17,467 nucleotides of DNA from a virus (Duplodnaviria; Heunggongvirae; Uroviricota; Caudoviricetes), in the IMG/VR virus record IMGVR_UViG_2585427741_000008; one strand, given 5' to 3'. How positions within the stretch are numbered: position 1 is the stretch's first letter; the number at the start of each line of letters is the position of its first letter. Shown in pieces: positions 2,824-13,039 of this stretch. The notes beneath the pieces were generated by a model that did not search any database, was not told the DNA's origin, and saw only the letters and a program-made list of their open reading frames with translations. Both the position numbers and the translations under genes were made by a program.

Positions 2824-3510
2824 TTAGAAGTTCAGATTTTTCAGTGCATTCAGTGCAAAGCCCACATCCTCAGCGTCGCGCAGGGACAGTGCGCCATAGC
2901 CCCCGGCCATGAATGCTTTGGCCTGGGTACGGGAGAGTCCGACATCACGCAGGACTCTTTCGATTTTTTTCTGTTCGGGGATTTCCCCGCGGGCCAGCGC
3001 GTTCTTGACGTCGCTGATCCGCGCCTCGTCGTTAGACGGAAACGTCACCAGACTGACTTCCCAGAGGTCGATTTCTTTCAACAGAAAGGCTTCTTTGCTC
3101 CGGTCGTATTCCCAGTCTTTCAGGACGTACCCAATAGAAAGGCCGGTTAACGAACCGGCCTTCATGTGTGCATGTGCGCGTTTTGCGAGGGGATCATCAT
3201 CAATAAGCAACCGTCCCCTGACGTAAAGTCCGACATCGTCTTCCTTCATTTCAGTGTAAACACCGATGGGTTCATCCATGCGGTGCTGCCAGAGCAGCGC
3301 AGGTAACGCTTTTCTGTCACTCCACGCCCGCAGGGAAGCAGCAAATGCCCCGGACATCACCACATCATCGTGGCTGTCCTTTACACCAAAGACGGAGCCA
3401 TACCCTTCAAACTCACCGGAGTCACTGACAGATTTCAGACTCAGCGGTACATCAAGACGTTGTTTCGTCTGCATTGGCGTTATCCTTCTGCTTACCGGCT
3501 TTACTGCCAT
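2824..3510 (-). CDS. Prohead maturation protease, HK97 family (peptidase S78-like)
   Basis: 228-aa ORF between portal and capsid. N-terminal region FEGYGSVFGVKDSHDDVVMSGAF is typical of HK97-type prohead proteases. The 5' end overlaps the portal ORF, so the true start may be the internal Met (MQTKQ...). Confidence 0.8.
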   Translation of the reverse strand: MAVKPVSRRITPMQTKQRLDVPLSLKSVSDSGEFEGYGSVFGVKDSHDDVVMSGAFAASLRAWSDRKALPALLWQHRMDEPIGVYTEMKEDDVGLYVRGRLLIDDDPLAKRAHAHMKAGSLTGLSIGYVLKDWEYDRSKEAFLLKEIDLWEVSLVTFPSNDEARISDVKNALARGEIPEQKKIERVLRDVGLSRTQAKAFMAGGYGALSLRDAEDVGFALNALKNLNF

Positions 3511-4886: not shown

Positions 4887-6620
4887 TTAAAGCGAGCGGA
4901 TCCCGTAGGACTCAATGTGATCAGACAGCGTGTCTTCTTTCTCGTACAGCATGGCTCTGCCAACCGCCATAATCAGCGCAACTGCACCGTCAATTTTGTT
5001 TTCCGCCTGCTCTTTGACGGGTTTCACCACATCATCGTTACCCGGCATGTTTTTGCCGACCACGTTGCCGATACACCAGGTCATGATGGGATTGCCGTCA
5101 TGATGAAAGCGTCCCGATTCAATCGCTGCTTCCAGCTCTTTCATCGGATCGGACATATTGGTGAAGTTCTGGAAGATAGTGACGGGATTCAGGTCTTCAT
5201 CAGCAAGGTCATGTGACAGCCCGGTCGCCCCGAAGGGGTCGATGGGTGACTCGCTGACCGGGCTGATTTTGTTCGCCGCTTTGGCCTCTTCGAGGATGTA
5301 GCGATAATCCACCTCTGCACCATCGGTAACGGTCAGGACGCCCATTTCCACCCATTTCTGAAAGCGTTCGGCTGTCCGGCGATCTTCATTTTTCTCGACG
5401 CTGTACACCGTGTCATACGGTACCCAGAAACGCGGGGCCACACTGTAGTAATGCGTTTTACCTTCAATCTCGCGGGTATAAAGTCGCGCCATGCTGTTCA
5501 TATCCAGTTTACGCGCCAGGTCAAAGGCCAGAATGCACGGCTGCCCCTCGAATTGCTCAAGAGTCAGTGATTTATCCTCGCAGCTCTGCCAGCTCACCAG
5601 GTTGAAATACGCCGAACGCGCCGACACCCAGATATTGAGGTGTTTTGTTTTAAAGACGTTTGCCAGACGGGCGTTATTTTTCGCACGCTGTTGCTGACTT
5701 AACAAAAACTCACGGTAAACCGACACCCCGATATTCGGGTTGGCTTTTTCCAGCACCTGTGGGTTGGTCCAGTCGTCACCTTCGTCAACGGTATAGATGA
5801 TCCCGAACAGTTCATCGTTGGGTACCGAACCGTTGAGCATCTCGATAACTTCCCGCCGTTTGTCGTAGCACGGCCCCTCAATGTTGTACCCGGCGGTAGT
5901 GATAGCCCACATCAGTGGCTGACGTCGCGCCCCCATCCCGGTAAGCATCGTGGTGTAAAGCGCATCTGTGGCGTGCTCGTGATATTCATCCACCACCGCA
6001 CAGTGGGGTGATGAACCATCACCGGGGTTACCGATCAGCGGTTCAAAACGCGCACCATCCTCCGGACGGTTCATGTTTGAGGCGTTAACCTCAATCCCGA
6101 ACGCTTCCGTCAGCATGGGTGTGCGTTTACACATCAGTCTTGCCGGACGAAAGACTTCCCATGCCTGTTTCTCCGTCGTGGCACCGGAATACACTTCCGC
6201 GCCGAACTCGTTATCACAGGCAAAACAATACAGGGCGACACCGGCAGAGATTGCCGATTTGCCGTTCTTACGGGGGATTTCGGTATACACCTCACGGAAG
6301 CGGCGCAGCCGGGAGCCTTTATTGACCCAGCCAAATGCGCAGCAGATCACAAAGAGCTGCCACGGCTCCAGCGTGATGGGCATCCGTTTAAATGCCCACT
6401 CACCCTTGGTGTGCGGCAACAGCTGAATAAATTTGGCGGCCCGTTCAGCCAGATCCTTGTCGAAGCGGTAACGAAACGACTTACTTTTTTCCGCCATCAG
6501 GTCATCAAGATGGCGCTGGCAGGCCTGAATCACAAACTGGCAGGCCACAATCTTTCCGCGCACGACATCCCGGGCATACTGATTGGCAGCATTTACGTTG
6601 GGGTAAGATTTCCGGCTCAT
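4887..6620 (-). CDS. Terminase large subunit
   Basis: 577-aa ORF with Walker A-like PRKNGKS and Walker B-like CAVVDEYHE. Follows the small terminase subunit. Confidence 0.9.
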
Positions 6621-6633
6621 GATTCGATGATTT

Positions 6634-7128
6634 TCAGATTGTCAGAAACGGGTTAGTGGCTTTCTTCTTCCCCGCCAGGCCAATCAGACGCTGGCGGCTG
6701 CTGGGGTCGAGTCCGAGCATTGCCCCCGTGCTGCTCATCTCGGACTCCTGTTCTTTTTTGGCGGTCAGCTCCGGATTTTTGACCATGCCACCCATTGCAC
6801 CGGTGATGGTGTTACCCTGTCTGGCAATATTTTTCACGGCACGTCGCCAGAACTCATAGGCCACACACCACCGCTCAAGTACCGCCAGGTCAGTCACGCA
6901 CAGCAGGCCCTGACCGCAGAGTTCTTTGGTTGTCAGTTGCCACATGATCGTGGCGAGAGGGAGATCTTCTTCAGCGAACCACTCCGGTGGCTCAACACCT
7001 TTGATGGGCGTAAAAACAGGTTCATCTTTATTCAGGGCTCGCTTGCCGGGGTTTCCGGCCAGCGCCTTGCGCGCCGTTGGCTTGGGGCGACGCCCGGAAC
7101 GCCCCGCCGTTCCAGCCATATGCGGCAC
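6634..7128 (-). CDS. Terminase small subunit (P27-family-like)
   Basis: 164-aa ORF with a basic N-terminus ([29 protein letters not shown]) typical of P27-family small terminases. Immediately upstream of terL. Confidence 0.8.
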
Positions 7129-7243: not shown

Positions 7244-7615
7244 TTACTTCAGCCGTTCACGGGCCGTCTTCGCCTTATGACACGGCCAGCACAGGCTCTG
7301 CAGATTGCTGTCGACATCAGTGCCGCCATGCGATTTAGGGATGATGTGGTCAACGGTCTTCGCCTCACGCACCACACCAGCACGCAGACATAACTGACAC
7401 AGGCCTTTGTCACGCTTCAGGACACGCGCGCGGATACTGTCCCACTTGGTATCGTAGCCACGCTGGTGGCGGGATTGTCCTGGTTTGTACTGACGCCAGC
7501 CTTCGCCTTTGTGTTGCTCGCAGTAGCCTGACGGGTCAGTGGTTGTCGATCGGCAGCCGCGAACACGGCAGGCTTTAGGTGTTCGTGGTGGCATAAATAT
7601 ATCCTTAGTATTCAA
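7244..7615 (-). CDS. HNH endonuclease (terminase-associated)
   Basis: 123-aa ORF with the HNH motif CQLCLRAGVVREAKTVDHIIPKSHGGTDVDSNLQSLCWPCHKAK. Adjacent to terS and the putative cos. Confidence 0.85.
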   Translation of the reverse strand: MNTKDIFMPPRTPKACRVRGCRSTTTDPSGYCEQHKGEGWRQYKPGQSRHQRGYDTKWDSIRARVLKRDKGLCQLCLRAGVVREAKTVDHIIPKSHGGTDVDSNLQSLCWPCHKAKTARERLK

Positions 7616-7709
7616 ATCACAACAACAGGTTTCCTATGGTGATGAGCGCCAGGGGTCTGTACAATTACTCTAATCACCCCCGTCAATAACGTTACAATTA
7701 GGAGGTTCA

Positions 7710-8567
7710 GTGTTAAATCCTATCAGCTTATTTTCAGTAAAATTAACCTGCTACCACAATGATAGAGAAATTATGGTAGGAACAGGTTTTCTTTATAGCC
7801 ATGAAGATTATAGAGACCCAATCTTAATAACAAACTACCATGTCCTAACCTGTAGAGAACCCAAAAACCCAGCATCCTTAATGAACAATATAGGATCCTC
7901 ACCAAATAAAATAAAATGTCACATTTGGGCTCCGAATGGCTCGTCCTGCCATACATTTTATATCAATATTGATGAACACACGGAATGGTTAGAACATCCC
8001 TTAAGGGCTAATGGGGTGGATATTGTTGGCATTCCCATAATCTTTACTAGCGATGTAGGCTATACAACACAAAACGATATTAACAACACCGACACAATTC
8101 CACTTCACGTTGCATCAGACTTATCAATCGTGGGTTATCCCCTTGGTTTATCTGTAAATGAGCATTTACCAATTTGGAAAAATGGAGTGATTGCCAGTGA
8201 ACCAGACGTTAAAATATCCGGCCTTGACTATTTCTATATTGATGCAACAACCAAGGAAGGCATGTCTGGATCTCCTGTATTTTCTCATGAATATACTACT
8301 CAAATTATAGTTTCACCAGAAGTGCATGCTTTATATCAGCGTCGCCAGCGAGGCGAACTAGATGCTTTGCAATTTATCTCTTCAATACCATCTGAGTCAC
8401 TAAACAACACCATTCAAGTAAAAAAATTCAAATTAATTGGTATTTATTCTGGACGAGTGACAGTAGGAACATCTATGCCAGATATAGGTATAGTTTGGAA
8501 GCTTAGTCTAATTGAGGAAATGCTTTCGTCCAAAAATTTGGTCAAATCAGAATATCCACCTTACTAA
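7710..8567 (+). CDS. Trypsin-like (S1/Trypsin_2-type) serine protease with an ~85-aa C-terminal extension of unknown function; AT-rich cargo gene
   Basis: 285-aa ORF with a GTG start at 7710 preceded by AGGAGG (7700-7705). Putative triad His44 (GTGFLYS...ILITNYHVL, codon 7839-7841), Asp104 (NGVDIVGI) and Ser186 (GMSGSPVF, codon 8265-8267). About 33% GC in a sampled 60-nt stretch versus about 47% in a sampled flank. Opposite strand to all flanking phage genes. Confidence 0.7.
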   Translation: MLNPISLFSVKLTCYHNDREIMVGTGFLYSHEDYRDPILITNYHVLTCREPKNPASLMNNIGSSPNKIKCHIWAPNGSSCHTFYINIDEHTEWLEHPLRANGVDIVGIPIIFTSDVGYTTQNDINNTDTIPLHVASDLSIVGYPLGLSVNEHLPIWKNGVIASEPDVKISGLDYFYIDATTKEGMSGSPVFSHEYTTQIIVSPEVHALYQRRQRGELDALQFISSIPSESLNNTIQVKKFKLIGIYSGRVTVGTSMPDIGIVWKLSLIEEMLSSKNLVKSEYPPY

Positions 8568-8624
8568 TCACTTTTCATAAGGGAGATATTGCACCTAATT
8601 GACAGTTTTCCGTTCTGGTTAGGA

Positions 8625-8870
8625 TCACTGTTGATTAATCTCCCTTAAATCAACTTTATCCCGATTACACTGCCCCAACGCTGATAACAGACTGACGTTC
8701 AAATCCAGGCTACCACCATAGGTCAACGGATCAGGAATCACTGGTTGCGGGGTTTCAGCGGTCAGATTCGCCGGTAATGGTACCGCCGGAACTTGCACGT
8801 AAACTGTCCGCGTACTTCCGCAACCGCTCAGCAGCGGCAGCAGGCACAAGGCGTGCAGCACAATCATCAT
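8625..8870 (-). CDS. Rz1: Rz1-like o-spanin (outer-membrane lipoprotein)
   Basis: Internal start MMIVLHALCLLPLLSGCGS gives a lipoprotein signal peptide with lipobox LLSGC, then a proline-rich mature part. Overlaps the 3' part of Rz in a different frame. The ORF track extends the frame upstream to 8936. Confidence 0.6.
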   Translation of the reverse strand: MMIVLHALCLLPLLSGCGSTRTVYVQVPAVPLPANLTAETPQPVIPDPLTYGGSLDLNVSLLSALGQCNRDKVDLREINQQ

Positions 8871-9135
8871 CCGCAACAGCCACTTTGATATCTTTCTGGA
8901 TTCTCTGTGACTCCTGTGCGATCTGCTGTTTTGCATGCTGGTTAACCTCTATAACTGTATTGACGATTTGCAGTGATTGCAGGACGTTACGGGTAATGGC
9001 TGTTGCAGATTCAGCATTTTGTACAGCCTCATCAGCACGTTTCTTTTCGTGCTGATATTTGCTGTAGTAGTGGTTGGCCGACCAGATGAAAGAACCGATG
9101 ACAGCAGCGATAACCAGCTTATAGCTCAACTTCAT
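8755..9135 (-). CDS. Rz: Rz-like i-spanin
   Basis: 126-aa ORF with an N-terminal transmembrane segment (KLVIAAVIGSFIWSANHYY) and a coiled-coil-like, Q/A-rich periplasmic region. Immediately downstream of the endolysin. Confidence 0.75.
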   Translation of the reverse strand: MKLSYKLVIAAVIGSFIWSANHYYSKYQHEKKRADEAVQNAESATAITRNVLQSLQIVNTVIEVNQHAKQQIAQESQRIQKDIKVAVADDDCAARLVPAAAAERLRKYADSLRASSGGTITGESDR

Positions 9136-9595
9136 TTACCACCCCACCAGCCTCTTTAAATCGGGCAATCAGGTCGCCGATTTTATGTTCATACTGACCG
9201 TAACCTGCACCTGGTAACGACGCCCAGATATTGCTGCAACGGTCGATTGCCTGACGAATATTGCCGCGGTCAATCATCGGTAAAGCGCCACGCTCTTTAA
9301 TCTGCTGCAGAGCTACAGCGTCCTGGCTTTCTGGAGAAAAATCTTTCAGGCCAAGCTGTTTACGGTAAGCATCCCACCAGCGTGAAAGAAGCTGGTAACG
9401 TCCGGCGGCTGTTGATTTGAGTTTGGGGTTTAGCGTGACAAGTTTGCGAGGGTGATCGGAGTAATCAGTGAACAGTTCGCCACCAACAATAACATCATAA
9501 CCGTGGTTACGTGTCGGTTGTTGCCCGTTATCCGTTCCTTCTGACCATGCCACCATATCAAGGAAAGCTTTACGCTGGGAATTTAGTGCCTGCAT
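9119..9595 (-). CDS. R: Endolysin, lambda R-type lytic transglycosylase
   Basis: 158 aa; the sequence (…QRKAFLDMVAWSEGTDNGQQPTRNHGYDVIVGGELFTDYSDHPRKLVTLNPKLKSTAAGRYQLLSRWWDAYRKQLGLKDF…) matches lambda R as I recall it along nearly the whole length, including the catalytic-Glu context WSEGT. Confidence 0.9.
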   Translation of the reverse strand: MQALNSQRKAFLDMVAWSEGTDNGQQPTRNHGYDVIVGGELFTDYSDHPRKLVTLNPKLKSTAAGRYQLLSRWWDAYRKQLGLKDFSPESQDAVALQQIKERGALPMIDRGNIRQAIDRCSNIWASLPGAGYGQYEHKIGDLIARFKEAGGVVNEVEL

Positions 9596-9598
9596 AAA

Positions 9599-9925
9599 TT
9601 ACTCCTTCGAGCTACCAAATTTGTTACCGATTACTCGCATTGCAGCCCCACGAATAGCATCGACACCGATCAGCCCAACGCCGCCACCAATGGCAACAGA
9701 AAGCGATTTAGGCCATCCGACATACTCAAGAGCGGATGCAAAAGTCAGCGTCAGAGCACCACAGAGCAAAATCTCGAGCGTTTTTCGTTTCCAGCCACCA
9801 CCACTGCCAAAATAGGCAATACGTAAACCAGCCATAACGATCGACATAATCACTGCGCCCAGCGGTGTGTCTCCACGCCACCAGCTCTGGACCAACTCCA
9901 GCCAAGTATTTGGGTTATGAGGCAT
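9599..9925 (-). CDS. Holin (three predicted transmembrane segments, class I-like)
   Basis: 108-aa ORF ending 3 nt before the endolysin start. Three hydrophobic stretches (LGAVIMSIVMAGLRIAYF; LEILLCGALTLTFASALEYVGW; LSVAIGGGVGLIGVDAI) and a charged C-terminus. Not recognisably lambda S. Confidence 0.65.
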   Translation of the reverse strand: MPHNPNTWLELVQSWWRGDTPLGAVIMSIVMAGLRIAYFGSGGGWKRKTLEILLCGALTLTFASALEYVGWPKSLSVAIGGGVGLIGVDAIRGAAMRVIGNKFGSSKE

Positions 9926-10204: not shown

Positions 10205-11995
10205 ATGAGCACAGAATTAAAACTAAAGAAAATTATGGCATCGTCTAAAATTGAGCCATTTATTAGACATATTCGTTTTCCTTTTTTTAAAAACCTTGCA
10301 GAGGGTAGCAAGATTGATTTTGAGTATCCAATTACAGCATTAGTTGGTCAAAACGGAACCAATAAAAGTTCTGTTTTAAGAGCCCTATTCGGTTCTCCAA
10401 ACAACTATTCTCTGGGTAGCTTATGGTTTTCTACAGATGTAGATGAGATTAAAGATGGTGGTCGTTCTAGATTTATTTATGGATATTATGACAAAGCTAC
10501 TGATTCAATTGTTGAAGTAATTAAAACTCGAATCTCTAAAGAAAATGATCCTGATTACTGGGAACCATCCAGACCATTAAAATCCGACAACATGGCTCCA
10601 ATGCCTAGTACAAAAATCTCAACCAATCAACTAAGGACTAGGTGGAAAGCTATTGACAAAAATGTAATATATTTAGATTTCAGAGCAACTATCAGTGCAT
10701 TTGATAAGTTCTTTTATCACTCTGATTTTCATACATACCCTAAGAAAGATTATCTTAGAAAACGCAGTCAGATGCTAAAAGACATTATAGATAACGATCT
10801 TAAAAAATATCAACCTCATAAAGGAAAAAAAGACAAGCTATTTGTTAACACTTTATTAGAAAAAAGTAAGGTAGAGGCAATCAGCAAGATTTTAGGTCGC
10901 AAATACACAAGCATCCGCCTTATTGAACATAGCTTATTCACTAATGACAAAGCTCCCACAATTATTCTTCAATCAGAAAACTTAAAATATTCTGAAGCTT
11001 TCGCAGGCAGTGGGGAATTTGCTGTATCTATATTAGTGCATAAACTAATGGATAGCCCTGATGCATCTTTAATTCTGCTAGATGAACCTGAAGTATCACT
11101 TCACCCTTCTGCTCAATGTCAATTGATGGAATTTTTATCAGAACAAGCACTTAAAAAGAAACATCAAATTGTCATATCCACACATTCATCAACAATAGTA
11201 AAAGACTTGCCTAAAAATGCCATAAAATTATTCTGTCTGAATGATAAAATAGGAAAGGTTGATGTTCTTCAAAATGTCAGCCCAGAAGAATCTTTCTTTA
11301 TTCTTGGTGAACGCATTGATAAAAGAACCGTTATTGTAGAAGATCGGTTAGCGAAGAGGTTTGTAGAAAAGGCGCTTAAAGCGGGTGGTGAAGCATTATT
11401 AAACTCCTTCGAAGTAAAACATGTTCCTGGAGGAGCGGGAAGTATTCTTCAAACTTTGGCTGTGCCTTTATGTGTTGCCAATGTTAAAAACGTTATTTTC
11501 TTATTAGATGGTGACCAATCGAGAACTGATGATTATCCAACTTCTGATTCCATACCAGAAAATCAAAACACAAACCTTCAAAACATCATAAAAGAAATAA
11601 CCAATCAAGATATAAAATTTAGTTGTGATGGTTCTAATGGCTCATCAAATAACAATCAAAAATACAAAATGCAAAGAAATTTTATCGATTTCATCCACGA
11701 TAAAATTGCTTTTCTTCCTGTTTATACTCCTGAAGCATTTCTTATTGAGAATGTTCATGGTGATTATAAAGAATATAAAGATCAAATCCCCAAAAACATT
11801 CAAGATGCTAAAGAAATCACCAAAGAACTTTGTAAGTTAGACACAGGGTTGGAAAACGTTACCAGTGACGATATCTTTGAAACACAAATCAGAATTCTTA
11901 ATAAAATACCAAATAATCATGAAGTGTTAACAAAAACTCGAGAGTTGCTGCAAATCTTTTTAGATAATGATACTATCAGACCAAGAGTGAGGTAG
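10205..11995 (+). CDS. ABC-type (AAA_15/AAA_21-like) ATPase with C-terminal TOPRIM-like putative nuclease domain (OLD/PARIS-like architecture)
   Basis: 596-aa ORF. P-loop-like ITALVGQNGTNKSSVL (aa 43-58, nt 10346-10369), Walker B/D-loop ASLILLDEPEVSLHPSAQ (D293 E294, nt 11081-11086), and in the C-terminal half an acidic pair VIVEDR (E379) plus a DxD motif FLLDGDQ (D435-G-D437, nt 11507-11515), as expected for a TOPRIM fold. AT-rich; stop is 3 nt before the methyltransferase start. Confidence 0.6.
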   Translation: MSTELKLKKIMASSKIEPFIRHIRFPFFKNLAEGSKIDFEYPITALVGQNGTNKSSVLRALFGSPNNYSLGSLWFSTDVDEIKDGGRSRFIYGYYDKATDSIVEVIKTRISKENDPDYWEPSRPLKSDNMAPMPSTKISTNQLRTRWKAIDKNVIYLDFRATISAFDKFFYHSDFHTYPKKDYLRKRSQMLKDIIDNDLKKYQPHKGKKDKLFVNTLLEKSKVEAISKILGRKYTSIRLIEHSLFTNDKAPTIILQSENLKYSEAFAGSGEFAVSILVHKLMDSPDASLILLDEPEVSLHPSAQCQLMEFLSEQALKKKHQIVISTHSSTIVKDLPKNAIKLFCLNDKIGKVDVLQNVSPEESFFILGERIDKRTVIVEDRLAKRFVEKALKAGGEALLNSFEVKHVPGGAGSILQTLAVPLCVANVKNVIFLLDGDQSRTDDYPTSDSIPENQNTNLQNIIKEITNQDIKFSCDGSNGSSNNNQKYKMQRNFIDFIHDKIAFLPVYTPEAFLIENVHGDYKEYKDQIPKNIQDAKEITKELCKLDTGLENVTSDDIFETQIRILNKIPNNHEVLTKTRELLQIFLDNDTIRPRVR

Positions 11996-11998
11996 ATA

Positions 11999-13039
11999 AT
12001 GGCTAAAAAGATACACGTTTACGATTTCTTTTCCGGCTGCGGCGGAACCAGTGTAGGCCTAAAAGCGGTGGGAATGGAAATTATTTTCGGTTTAGATATT
12101 GATCTAGACTCCGCTAACACCTTTAAAATGAATAATCCATTTGCACATTTTATCAATGGTGATATCAAAGATACACACGTTGAGGAAATTAAGCATCTGG
12201 TTTGTGCGTCAACACAAAGCAAAGCTCTAACCCTATTTTGTGGTTGTGCTCCATGTCAACCATTCTCGAAACAAAATAAAATACGGAACGAGGATGATCC
12301 GAGAAAAGATCTGCTTACTGAGTTTGCACGGTTTGTCTCTTATTATACGCCAGACTTTGTACTGGTAGAGAATGTACCAGGAATCCAAAATGTCGATATT
12401 AACAATGGAAATTTCCAGAAATTTCTTGAGGTTTTAGCACATCATAACTACAACGTTGATTTTGGTGTGATTCCTGCGTTGTGGTTCGGGGTTCCTCAAA
12501 CACGTGAACGTTTTGTTTTACTGGCGTCAAAACACACGAATATTAAGCTTCCATCACAAACTCATGATGGATTAAAAACTCCGTATGCAACTGTCAGAGA
12601 CTGGATCGGCGGATTACCTCCTATTGCTGCCGGTGAAACTCATAAAGATGTTATGGATCATACAGCAGCCAAACTATCTGATCTAAATATTAAACGTATT
12701 AAAGCGACTCCTGAAGGAAAAGGTAGAGAATCTTGGCCTGAAGAACTTATACTAAAATGCCATAAAAAATATAAAGGGCATACTGATGTTTATGGACGGC
12801 TTTCTTGGGACAAACCAGCAAGTGGATTAACAACTAGATGTATAAGCTATTCGAATGGACGTTTCGGACATCCAGAGCAAGATAGGGCTATTTCTGTTAG
12901 AGAGGCTGCGTTATTACAGACTTTCCCATTAGACTATTCCTTCACAGGCTCTTTAGTCTCGAAAGCCAAACAGATAGGGAATGCAGTCCCTCCCAAGATG
13001 GCTGAAGCTCTTGGAAGGGCTATCATCGCATCACTTTAA
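11999..13039 (+). CDS. DNA (cytosine-5)-methyltransferase
   Basis: 346-aa ORF with the canonical m5C-MTase motif order: I FSGCGG (nt 12029-12046), IV GCAPCQPFS (PCQ at 12251-12259), VI LVENVPGI (ENV at 12367-12375), VIII QTRERFVL (12497-12511) and X IGNAVPP near the C-terminus, with a variable region between VIII and X. Confidence 0.9.
   Translation: MAKKIHVYDFFSGCGGTSVGLKAVGMEIIFGLDIDLDSANTFKMNNPFAHFINGDIKDTHVEEIKHLVCASTQSKALTLFCGCAPCQPFSKQNKIRNEDDPRKDLLTEFARFVSYYTPDFVLVENVPGIQNVDINNGNFQKFLEVLAHHNYNVDFGVIPALWFGVPQTRERFVLLASKHTNIKLPSQTHDGLKTPYATVRDWIGGLPPIAAGETHKDVMDHTAAKLSDLNIKRIKATPEGKGRESWPEELILKCHKKYKGHTDVYGRLSWDKPASGLTTRCISYSNGRFGHPEQDRAISVREAALLQTFPLDYSFTGSLVSKAKQIGNAVPPKMAEALGRAIIASL

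Follow-up and report, generated by a model that had tools for sequence, protein, structure and literature searches.

A stand-alone trypsin-like serine protease carried in a variable cargo slot of an HK97-type Escherichia coli prophage, a candidate one-protein anti-phage system

The Lit protein of the e14 prophage is a zinc metalloprotease (HEXXH) that brings about abortive infection by cleaving EF-Tu upon binding of the T4 Gol peptide, and the lambda bor gene, which encodes a lipoprotein altering serum resistance, lies on the opposite strand in a slot equivalent to the one described here. Trypsin-fold proteases enter bacterial immunity as part of the trypsin-MBL module, the effector of Hachiman, Avs, Lamassu and UG9 systems (PMC12799240; 10.1101/2025.09.03.673762; PMC9226505); there the protease, fused with HamA, Avs, LmuA or a UG9 reverse transcriptase, cuts the MBL pro-nuclease encoded upstream at a specific site and so activates it (PMC12799240, PMC9226505). 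The defence candidate PDC-S45, for which a published true member scores 4e-94, has been reported in Sinorhizobium prophages (PMC12429752), and the validated Tai defence genes of phi80-like lambdoid phages, the products of which block tail assembly, are reported to be located predominantly upstream of the packaging module (PMC11364771). Here we describe a protease gene within a 17,467-nucleotide stretch of Caudoviricetes DNA (IMG/VR record IMGVR_UViG_2585427741_000008, identified here as IMG/VR contig UViG_2609459831_000008; the whole stretch is referred to below as the window), which is a segment of a lambdoid HK97-type E. coli prophage with nearly all of its genes on the minus strand. The gene encodes a compact single-domain serine protease and is accessory cargo (a moron) in the slot that separates the lysis cassette from the packaging module; its benefit to the lysogen as a one-protein anti-phage system is the explanation we favour, at a rough probability of 0.45.

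The open reading frame (ORF), its ribosome-binding sequence and the three catalytic codons lie as follows.

7710 to 8567, plus strand: protease ORF of 285 amino acids plus stop, with a GTG start, encoding a stand-alone S1/PA-clan serine protease with an HtrA-like core.
7700 to 7705, plus strand: Shine-Dalgarno sequence AGGAGG, 4 nt ahead of the GTG, read directly from the sequence and kept in the Salmonella copies.
7839 to 7841, plus strand: codon CAT of the catalytic His44, invariant in 69 and in 143 homologues.
8019 to 8021, plus strand: codon GAT of the catalytic Asp104, invariant in the same two alignments.
8265 to 8267, plus strand: codon TCT of the catalytic Ser186, within GMSGSP, likewise invariant in both alignments.

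RefSeq carries an identical 858-nt coding sequence under the name ‘trypsin-like peptidase domain-containing protein’, and the Salmonella orthologue has an ATG at the position of the GTG. A preliminary description of this DNA, made from the letters alone, had proposed a 285-residue plus-strand ORF with AGGAGG and a GTG at 7710, divergent from the HNH gene and convergent with the lysis cassette, and both the RefSeq coding sequence and the gene coordinates agree with it; the positions that it gave for the motifs around His44, Asp104 and Ser186 were exact (GTGF at residues 24–27, ILITNYHVL at 38–46, VDIVGI at 103–108 and GMSGSPVF at 184–191). The AT-richness that it noted is real, although its figure of about 33% GC was too low, the ORF having 37.1% GC (30.4% at third codon positions) against 54.2% for the phage backbone. 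Third-position GC is 0.57–0.65 in the HNH, TerS and lysC genes compared with 0.30 in the protease ORF.

The protein matched Pfam PF13365 (Trypsin_2) over residues 24–193 at 37.9 bits, above the cut-off of 27.6 bits (E 3.8e-9), and PHROG 7688 (function unknown) over its full length (4e-68), while no NCBIfam family was matched. Residues H44, D104, S186, D178, G184, G187 and G244 were invariant in the 69- and 143-member alignments, and the triad order His, Asp, Ser, conserved across relatives, is that of peptidase family S1 of the PA clan. The AlphaFold2 model (predicted local distance difference test [pLDDT] 93, predicted template modelling score [pTM] 0.89) is one compact unit with the double β-barrel of the chymotrypsin fold, and the protein is thus, as the preliminary description held, a stand-alone trypsin-like serine protease. 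HtrA1 was the top PDB sequence match and aligned in the same register, with Asp178, 8 residues ahead of Ser186, matching the aspartate of the HtrA ‘TDA’ motif; a direct PDB sequence search with the single protein returned nothing meaningful, and the BFVD viral fold library returned just generic viral trypsin-like or 3C proteases. Neither Pfam nor PHROG gave a match to an HK97-type (S78) prohead protease, and the HEXXH motif is absent. The N-terminus, MLNPISLFSVKLTCYHNDRE, lacks a hydrophobic signal segment and lies inside the folded domain (helix 4–8 and strand 9–16, pLDDT 94), so that the protein is presumably cytoplasmic. No PDZ domain was matched in Pfam, and the model is a single protease domain ending in the canonical C-terminal helix. 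The gene product is a compact single-domain HtrA-like S1 protease that lacks a PDZ domain and any fused sensor and stands without a partner gene, and it is probably catalytically competent.

Two segments downstream of the catalytic serine deserve separate mention.

8307 to 8408, plus strand: clade-specific helical insert, residues about 200–233 (about 34 residues forming three short helices), which separates the post-serine strand from the GIYSGR strand (AlphaFold2 model and alignment).
8439 to 8567, plus strand: conserved C-terminal part, comprising the GIYSGR strand (244–249), the GIVWK strand (260–264), a helix (265–274) and a YPP tail (alignments and model).

The preliminary description had regarded the last 85 residues or so as an extension without recognisable motif, possibly a sensing domain. 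That was wrong: the region consists of the strands that canonically follow the serine in a chymotrypsin fold, together with the C-terminal helix of that fold, and it seemed unassigned because the Pfam model stops shortly after the catalytic serine. The order in the model is strand 189–199, helices 203–232, strand 234–249, strand 259–264 and helix 265–274; GIYSGR and GIVWK rank among the family's most conserved motifs, with Y246, S247, G248, R249, G260 and W263 each at least 90% conserved in the two alignments. A separate C-terminal sensing domain was consequently rejected, the region having family-wide motifs, completing the second β-barrel and containing the clade-specific insert. The helices of this insert (203–213, 219–225 and 228–232) were found in the closer clade only and are gapped in the alignment of distant homologues, and the insert is the sole candidate for a clade-specific regulatory or specificity element.

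The surroundings of the gene were compared with those of related prophages, and the following features delimit the cargo.

7606 to 8663, no strand: AT-rich cargo insert (moron) of 1,058 bp, in place of about 80 bp at the empty site (alignment to the empty site).
7244 to 7594, minus strand: left flank, HNH endonuclease gene of the packaging module, not cargo (Pfam HNH 8.9e-17; RefSeq).
8625 to 8936, minus strand: right flank, the Rz1-like o-spanin gene lysC, not cargo save for its 3' end (Pfam LysC 1.1e-16; RefSeq).

On the minus strand, the head genes and the portal gene are followed by TerL (4887–6620), TerS (6634–7128) and HNH, and beyond the protease by LysC, an Rz-like gene (8755–9135), endolysin (9119–9595), holin (9599–9925), then Q and the early genes. 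In E. coli NADC1036, where the site is empty, homology stops at window position 7605 and resumes at 8664, with a gap of 26 bp between HNH and lysC. The insert has a GC content of 0.376 compared with 0.542 for the backbone and holds one ORF only. On the right it ends within the last ~13 codons of lysC, and since it brings its own version of those codons, it was probably exchanged by recombination within lysC instead of by clean insertion; a search for insertion scars found short flanking repeats at chance level only, and neither a target-site duplication nor terminal repeats. The 1-kb segment was present in three of 5,426 complete E. coli genomes (at least 99.8% identity), in each case between HNH and lysC, whereas the 50,697 phage records contained no copy of it. 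The carrier prophage of strain I3 has another holin, Q and set of early genes and is without the second AT-rich island of the window (see below), from which it follows that the protease cassette moves independently. The HNH and lysC flanks themselves occur in 1,216 of the 5,426 genomes, with an interval that is empty in some and filled with unrelated cargo in others (a 197-residue hypothetical protein, a GrlR-family protein, DUF6236, YodC, or a hypothetical plus ClpP-like pair). The last of these was seen in E. coli CNREC_004-43, where the same slot (922–2109 of locus L020, plus strand) encodes a 182-residue hypothetical protein and a 186-residue ‘ATP-dependent Clp protease proteolytic subunit’-like protein, so that this hotspot has taken up a second protease cargo on the opposite strand. 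With flanking genes that adjoin each other in related phages and a composition distinct from its surroundings, the insert agrees with the classical definition of a moron (Juhala/Hendrix) and shows the protease gene to be accessory cargo in a variable slot that divides the lysis cassette from the packaging module; the AT-rich opposite-strand insertion between spanins and HNH/terminase genes that had been proposed is thereby confirmed by the empty site and the alternative cargos.

A word-indexed search returned 695 homologues, nearly all of 255–320 residues and covering 93–100% of the query, with identities of 85% in Citrobacter, 81% in Salmonella, 78% in Klebsiella, 40–45% in Aeromonas, Shewanella, Comamonas and Erwinia, and about 30% in cyanobacteria, Actinobacteria and many metagenome-assembled genomes. 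An exhaustive profile search extended this to 10,300 proteins at E≤1e-3 and 1,651 cluster representatives (50% identity) at E≤1e-30, almost all of 250–300 residues. The contexts of the closer relatives were as follows.

Salmonella, lambdoid remnant: same HNH/LysC slot.
Klebsiella and Enterobacter, prophages with P22-like terminase: between the lysis cassette and TerS, opposite strand.
Aeromonas, Mu-like prophage: opposite strand, adjoining a putAbiC gene.
Comamonas, prophage end: beside lysis genes.
Shewanella, P2/HP1-like prophage: between integrase and tail genes.
Erwinia, remnant: adjoining an integrase fragment and an insertion sequence (IS).

All 15 of the phage-borne copies examined were more AT-rich than their flanks, by 10–21 percentage points. 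Clustering of neighbours by all-vs-all BLASTP (590 ORFs from 113 loci, being 80 species genomes and 33 IMG/VR contigs) revealed no partner gene conserved across these loci; the neighbours that did recur were confined to the spanin, endolysin, holin and terminase genes of the phage-borne copies, and at no fewer than 14 of the 33 viral loci a homologue lay next to spanin, endolysin and terminase genes.

Several of these loci contained other accessory genes. In the Aeromonas veronii Mu-like prophage (8001–10787 in L009/L010), the 43%-identical homologue forms, with putAbiC (PF16872), a two-gene accessory island among the tail genes. The Klebsiella carrier prophage has a colicin and immunity pair in its nin region (L006, 13429–15142), and the Salmonella remnant encodes a Macro-domain protein and an Rce1/CPBP-like protein (L004, 4958–5782 and 10804–11637). 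Three Lachnospiraceae loci (L058, L064 and L067) share a context with a 109-residue ORF upstream, an ORF of about 2,977 residues further upstream and a 96-residue ORF downstream; DUF6664 was the sole Pfam family matched by three neighbour proteins in the batch scan, and the Lachnospiraceae context may be a lineage-specific multi-gene one.

A more distant subfamily, type B, comprises AT-rich genes for proteins of 296–300 residues (24–29% identical, C-terminus FKF) in the slot between Rz and HNH, TerS or TerL. It is co-oriented with the late genes in six of the 33 viral loci (L126–L129, L132 and L133) and occurs in two to three E. coli genomes, TUM1880 and MEI2A-0323 among them, with a further S1-peptidase variant in four. 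The only relative of the protease among the 50,697 phage records was also of type B: the gene annotated just as ‘hypothetical protein SfII_57’ in the temperate Shigella phage SfII, which lies between Rz1 and HNH at the genome end and has lost its 5' end to IS911 (L137, 3015–4741; KC736978.1, 39323–41049). SfII is viable, and this relative is therefore dispensable for its growth. The preliminary description had suggested that homologues found consistently inside phage structural operons, in the same orientation, would imply a virion function. Homologues oriented in this way inside late operons do exist, as type B in the six loci and in SfII, but the implication does not hold, because the type B copies are AT-rich cargo in the same hotspot and dispensable.

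A role in virion morphogenesis or lysis, whether as a second maturation protease or in the processing of lysis proteins, could be read into the recurrence of homologues beside spanin, endolysin and terminase genes, but it is essentially refuted by several lines of evidence. The HNH/LysC flanks are found without the gene in about 1,200 E. coli genomes, empty sites included; the gene lies on the opposite strand with foreign composition; relatives also occupy unrelated slots in Mu-like and P2-like prophages; and SfII is viable with its copy disrupted. In addition, RefSeq annotation of the identical prophage confirms the dedicated HK97-type prohead protease that the preliminary description had placed at 2824–3510, and its view that the protein has no obvious part in the head pathway is upheld by the lack of the gene from nearly all related prophages and by the disrupted relative in SfII.

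The same data bear on the idea that the protease benefits the phage itself during lytic growth or establishment, as a counter-defence or takeover factor cleaving a host defence protein, a regulator, the repressor of a competitor prophage or a protein of a rival phage. The gene is phage-carried, proteases are versatile effectors, and type B, whose members point the same way as the lysis and terminase genes, would be produced late in lytic growth. However, with its slot at the end of the late operon the gene comes too late for counter-defence, late transcription in the window is antisense to the gene, and the family was absent from the virulent phages among the 50,697 records. As the relative in SfII is disrupted in a viable phage and the gene is kept intact in remnants incapable of lytic growth, we consider a lytic benefit improbable, if not to the degree of a structural role.

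Comparison of the E. coli, Salmonella and Klebsiella copies gave dN/dS of 0.07–0.17 at dS 0.7–2.2, which indicates purifying selection, and the gene is intact in the decayed prophages of E. coli LR-03 and in the Salmonella (L004) and Erwinia (L015) remnants. In LR-03, a truncated TerL pseudogene abuts a truncated baseplate J pseudogene (L001, 17837–19029), the head genes and most tail genes having been deleted, and the protease, the ATPase and methylase island described below and the lysis genes are all intact. Purifying selection together with an intact gene in prophages without structural genes argues for a function in the prophage state, of benefit to the host or to the element, and not for one in lytic growth.

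These results also weigh on the possibility of a selfish or near-neutral cargo, either an addiction-type toxin that would harm the cell once lost or deregulated, or a hitch-hiker of no current use to phage or host. The protease is a single AT-rich, rare gene on a mobile element, and its well-conserved upstream region could be the source of a regulatory or antisense RNA. Against this, no antitoxin ORF was found within the 1,058-bp insert, the low dN/dS over dS values of up to about 2 reflects long-term selection on the protein, and the triad is invariant across thousands of relatives, which makes such a cargo decidedly improbable.

Retention under purifying selection in decayed prophages would equally suit a lysogenic-conversion or host-fitness factor unrelated to phages, for instance a cytoplasmic quality-control or regulatory protease acting in stress tolerance, toxin-antitoxin control or persistence. 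The HtrA-like core, the use by lambda bor of the same slot and the many distant homologues with housekeeping neighbours are all consistent with this proposal. On the other hand, a protein with neither signal peptide nor PDZ domain is not an envelope-stress HtrA, a rare and patchy distribution (the three carriers among 5,426 genomes) is atypical of a general fitness factor, and the family is related to the defence candidate PDC-S45 and to defence-fused trypsin domains. A host-fitness role of this kind is accordingly judged unlikely.

Two further elements border the ORF.

7595 to 7709, plus strand: upstream non-coding region, presumed promoter and 5' untranslated region of the protease gene, with the ribosome-binding site of HNH at its left end.
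8578 to 8647, plus strand: stable stem-loop directly 3' of the ORF, overlapping the lysC stop (inverted repeat TAAGGGAGAT/ATCTCCCTTA; RNA fold).

The 115-bp upstream region is 93% identical between E. coli and Salmonella, compared with 81.6% for the ORF, and a weak TGTACAAT was spotted by eye at 7658–7665; the conservation suggests that the region may function as a promoter. The stem-loop has an RNA fold of −27.5 kcal/mol (z −3.9), and none of 200 shuffles was equally stable. It is not followed by a U-tract and was not called in the terminator scan, and it may serve to end or stabilise a transcript. Two terminator-like matches of the scan lie inside the ORF and are probably due to chance.

Searches of PADLOC-DB gave PDC-S45 (PDLC05022) as the best model for the window protein (E 5.3e-21, 72.8 bits), and all 69 and all 143 family representatives matched the same model, down to 2.8e-46. 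Weaker matches were found to RT-Protease_XI (1e-6; 95 of 143 relatives) and LmuA (1e-4; 42 of 143). Beside distant chromosomal homologues, strong PADLOC matches included DpdF (twice), MADS mad2 (twice), type I and III methylases, Cas7, and the CBASS JAB and 2TM effector models. The genes adjacent to homologues gave 136 PADLOC model matches for 145 proteins, compared with 55 for 113 control proteins 7–9.5 kb away at the same loci with much weaker scores, a comparison that is a crude measure in that it rests on family counts and not on per-protein matches.

The window contains a second AT-rich island (10205–13039, plus strand, 35.8% GC) between the holin and the Q antiterminator. It encodes a 596-residue AAA_15/AAA_21 ATPase annotated as ‘ATP-dependent nuclease’ and, directly after it, a 346-residue C5 cytosine methyltransferase; the ATPase is OLD/Gabija/PtuA-like, with PADLOC matches to HEC-04 (1.9e-36) and ATPase-Toprim_I-B (1.1e-24). 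This island, which is present in LR-03 and A21 and absent from the protease-bearing I3 prophage, looks like a second defence-type moron.

The explanation that we favour, tentatively, is that the protease benefits the lysogen as a one-protein anti-phage system, expressed from its own upstream region and acting in a manner resembling Lit. The conserved upstream region would drive transcription in the lysogen, and late phage transcription would run antisense to the gene in the opposite-strand copies. The uninfected cell would be unharmed if the protease were narrowly specific or, like HtrA-type proteases, dependent on substrate-induced activation, and either property could take the place of a separate sensor. 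Upon superinfection the protease would cleave either one of the incoming phage's own proteins or an essential host factor that the phage exposes or presents, and phage production would be blocked. The link to defence is supported by the relationship to PDC-S45, the location in prophage hotspots, the putAbiC neighbour in Aeromonas and the modest adjacency of distant homologues to defence genes; the HEC-04 ATPase and C5-methylase island of the same prophage, the position shared with Tai and the lack of a conserved partner count as further points. A link to lysogeny and not to the lytic cycle is suggested because the sole relative in the phage records sits, disrupted by IS911, in the temperate SfII.

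Several observations weigh against this explanation. The match to PDC-S45 covers the protease core only (profile positions 21–213 of 293), and most distant chromosomal homologues have ordinary housekeeping neighbours, the enrichment for defence genes being modest. The literature provided no experimental validation for PDC-S45, which is a candidate only, or for any family member, and no validated stand-alone trypsin-like or S1 defence gene emerged from a functional-selection screen in E. coli, from two screens for domain modularity, from a machine-learning paper on anti-defence or from reviews. A consensus scan found no sigma-70 promoter at threshold upstream of the ORF, and the orientation of type B would give late lytic expression. 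Lastly, a sensor-less protease has no obvious way of detecting infection. A bolder version of the favoured explanation, which is conceivable but doubtful, would make the whole superfamily of more than 1,600 clusters, PDC-S45 included, which is distributed widely among bacteria and travels in prophage cargo hotspots, a set of sensor-less trypsin-fold ‘restriction proteases’ that directly recognise and cut, or are switched on by, a conserved phage protein, with the helical insert as the specificity or gating element and with types A and B targeting different phages.

The gene carries a generic RefSeq annotation and its superfamily is already catalogued as the defence candidate PDC-S45. A role in defence would provide a function for a very large uncharacterised family (1,651 clusters), and a single-domain trypsin-fold immune system would be new; should the gene instead be a host-fitness or selfish one, it would be an ordinary moron. 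Independently of its function, the HNH/Rz1 junction of HK97-type E. coli prophages is a cargo hotspot that can be mined for further accessory genes.

Among known systems, bor and the Tai genes share with the protease gene a slot after Rz/Rz1 and upstream of the packaging module and variable cargo, bor being on the opposite strand as well; their products are unrelated to the protease, so that location and cargo logic alone are held in common. HtrA, DegS and DegP (MEROPS S1C) have the same HtrA-type protease core, at 14–23% identity, while the window protein has extra insertions at residues ~48–66, ~110–135 and ~200–233; HtrA is a housekeeping envelope-stress gene, in contrast to a gene on a prophage cargo insert, and membership was rejected for the lack of a PDZ domain and of an export signal or membrane anchor. 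The trypsin-MBL module resembles it as a defence-associated trypsin fold and offers a precedent for a specific endopeptidase in immunity, but there the protease is always fused to a sensor enzyme and paired with an MBL protein, whereas the protease of the window stands alone. No MBL family member was found in the insert, in the scanned ORFs of the window or among the neighbours of homologues, the upstream gene being HNH on the other strand, and membership in the module was rejected in the absence of an MBL gene and of any fusion (a 285-residue single domain).

Lit is a functional analogue of the proposed mechanism, being a single prophage-encoded cytoplasmic protease with no separate sensor protein, although the two are not homologous (an HEXXH metalloprotease as opposed to a Ser/His/Asp triad). 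PDC-S45 and the window protein are alike as single-gene, stand-alone trypsin-like proteases of about 290 residues; the window protein differs in its own post-serine helical insert and in its weaker, core-only match, and on the evidence of these profile matches it appears to be a divergent branch of the superfamily that includes PDC-S45. If the defence explanation is true, this single 285-residue domain would come close to being the simplest of all known protease-based immune systems, acting without the sensor ATPase, pro-nuclease or gasdermin that accompany trypsin-like proteases in Hachiman, Avs, Lamassu and gasdermin systems.

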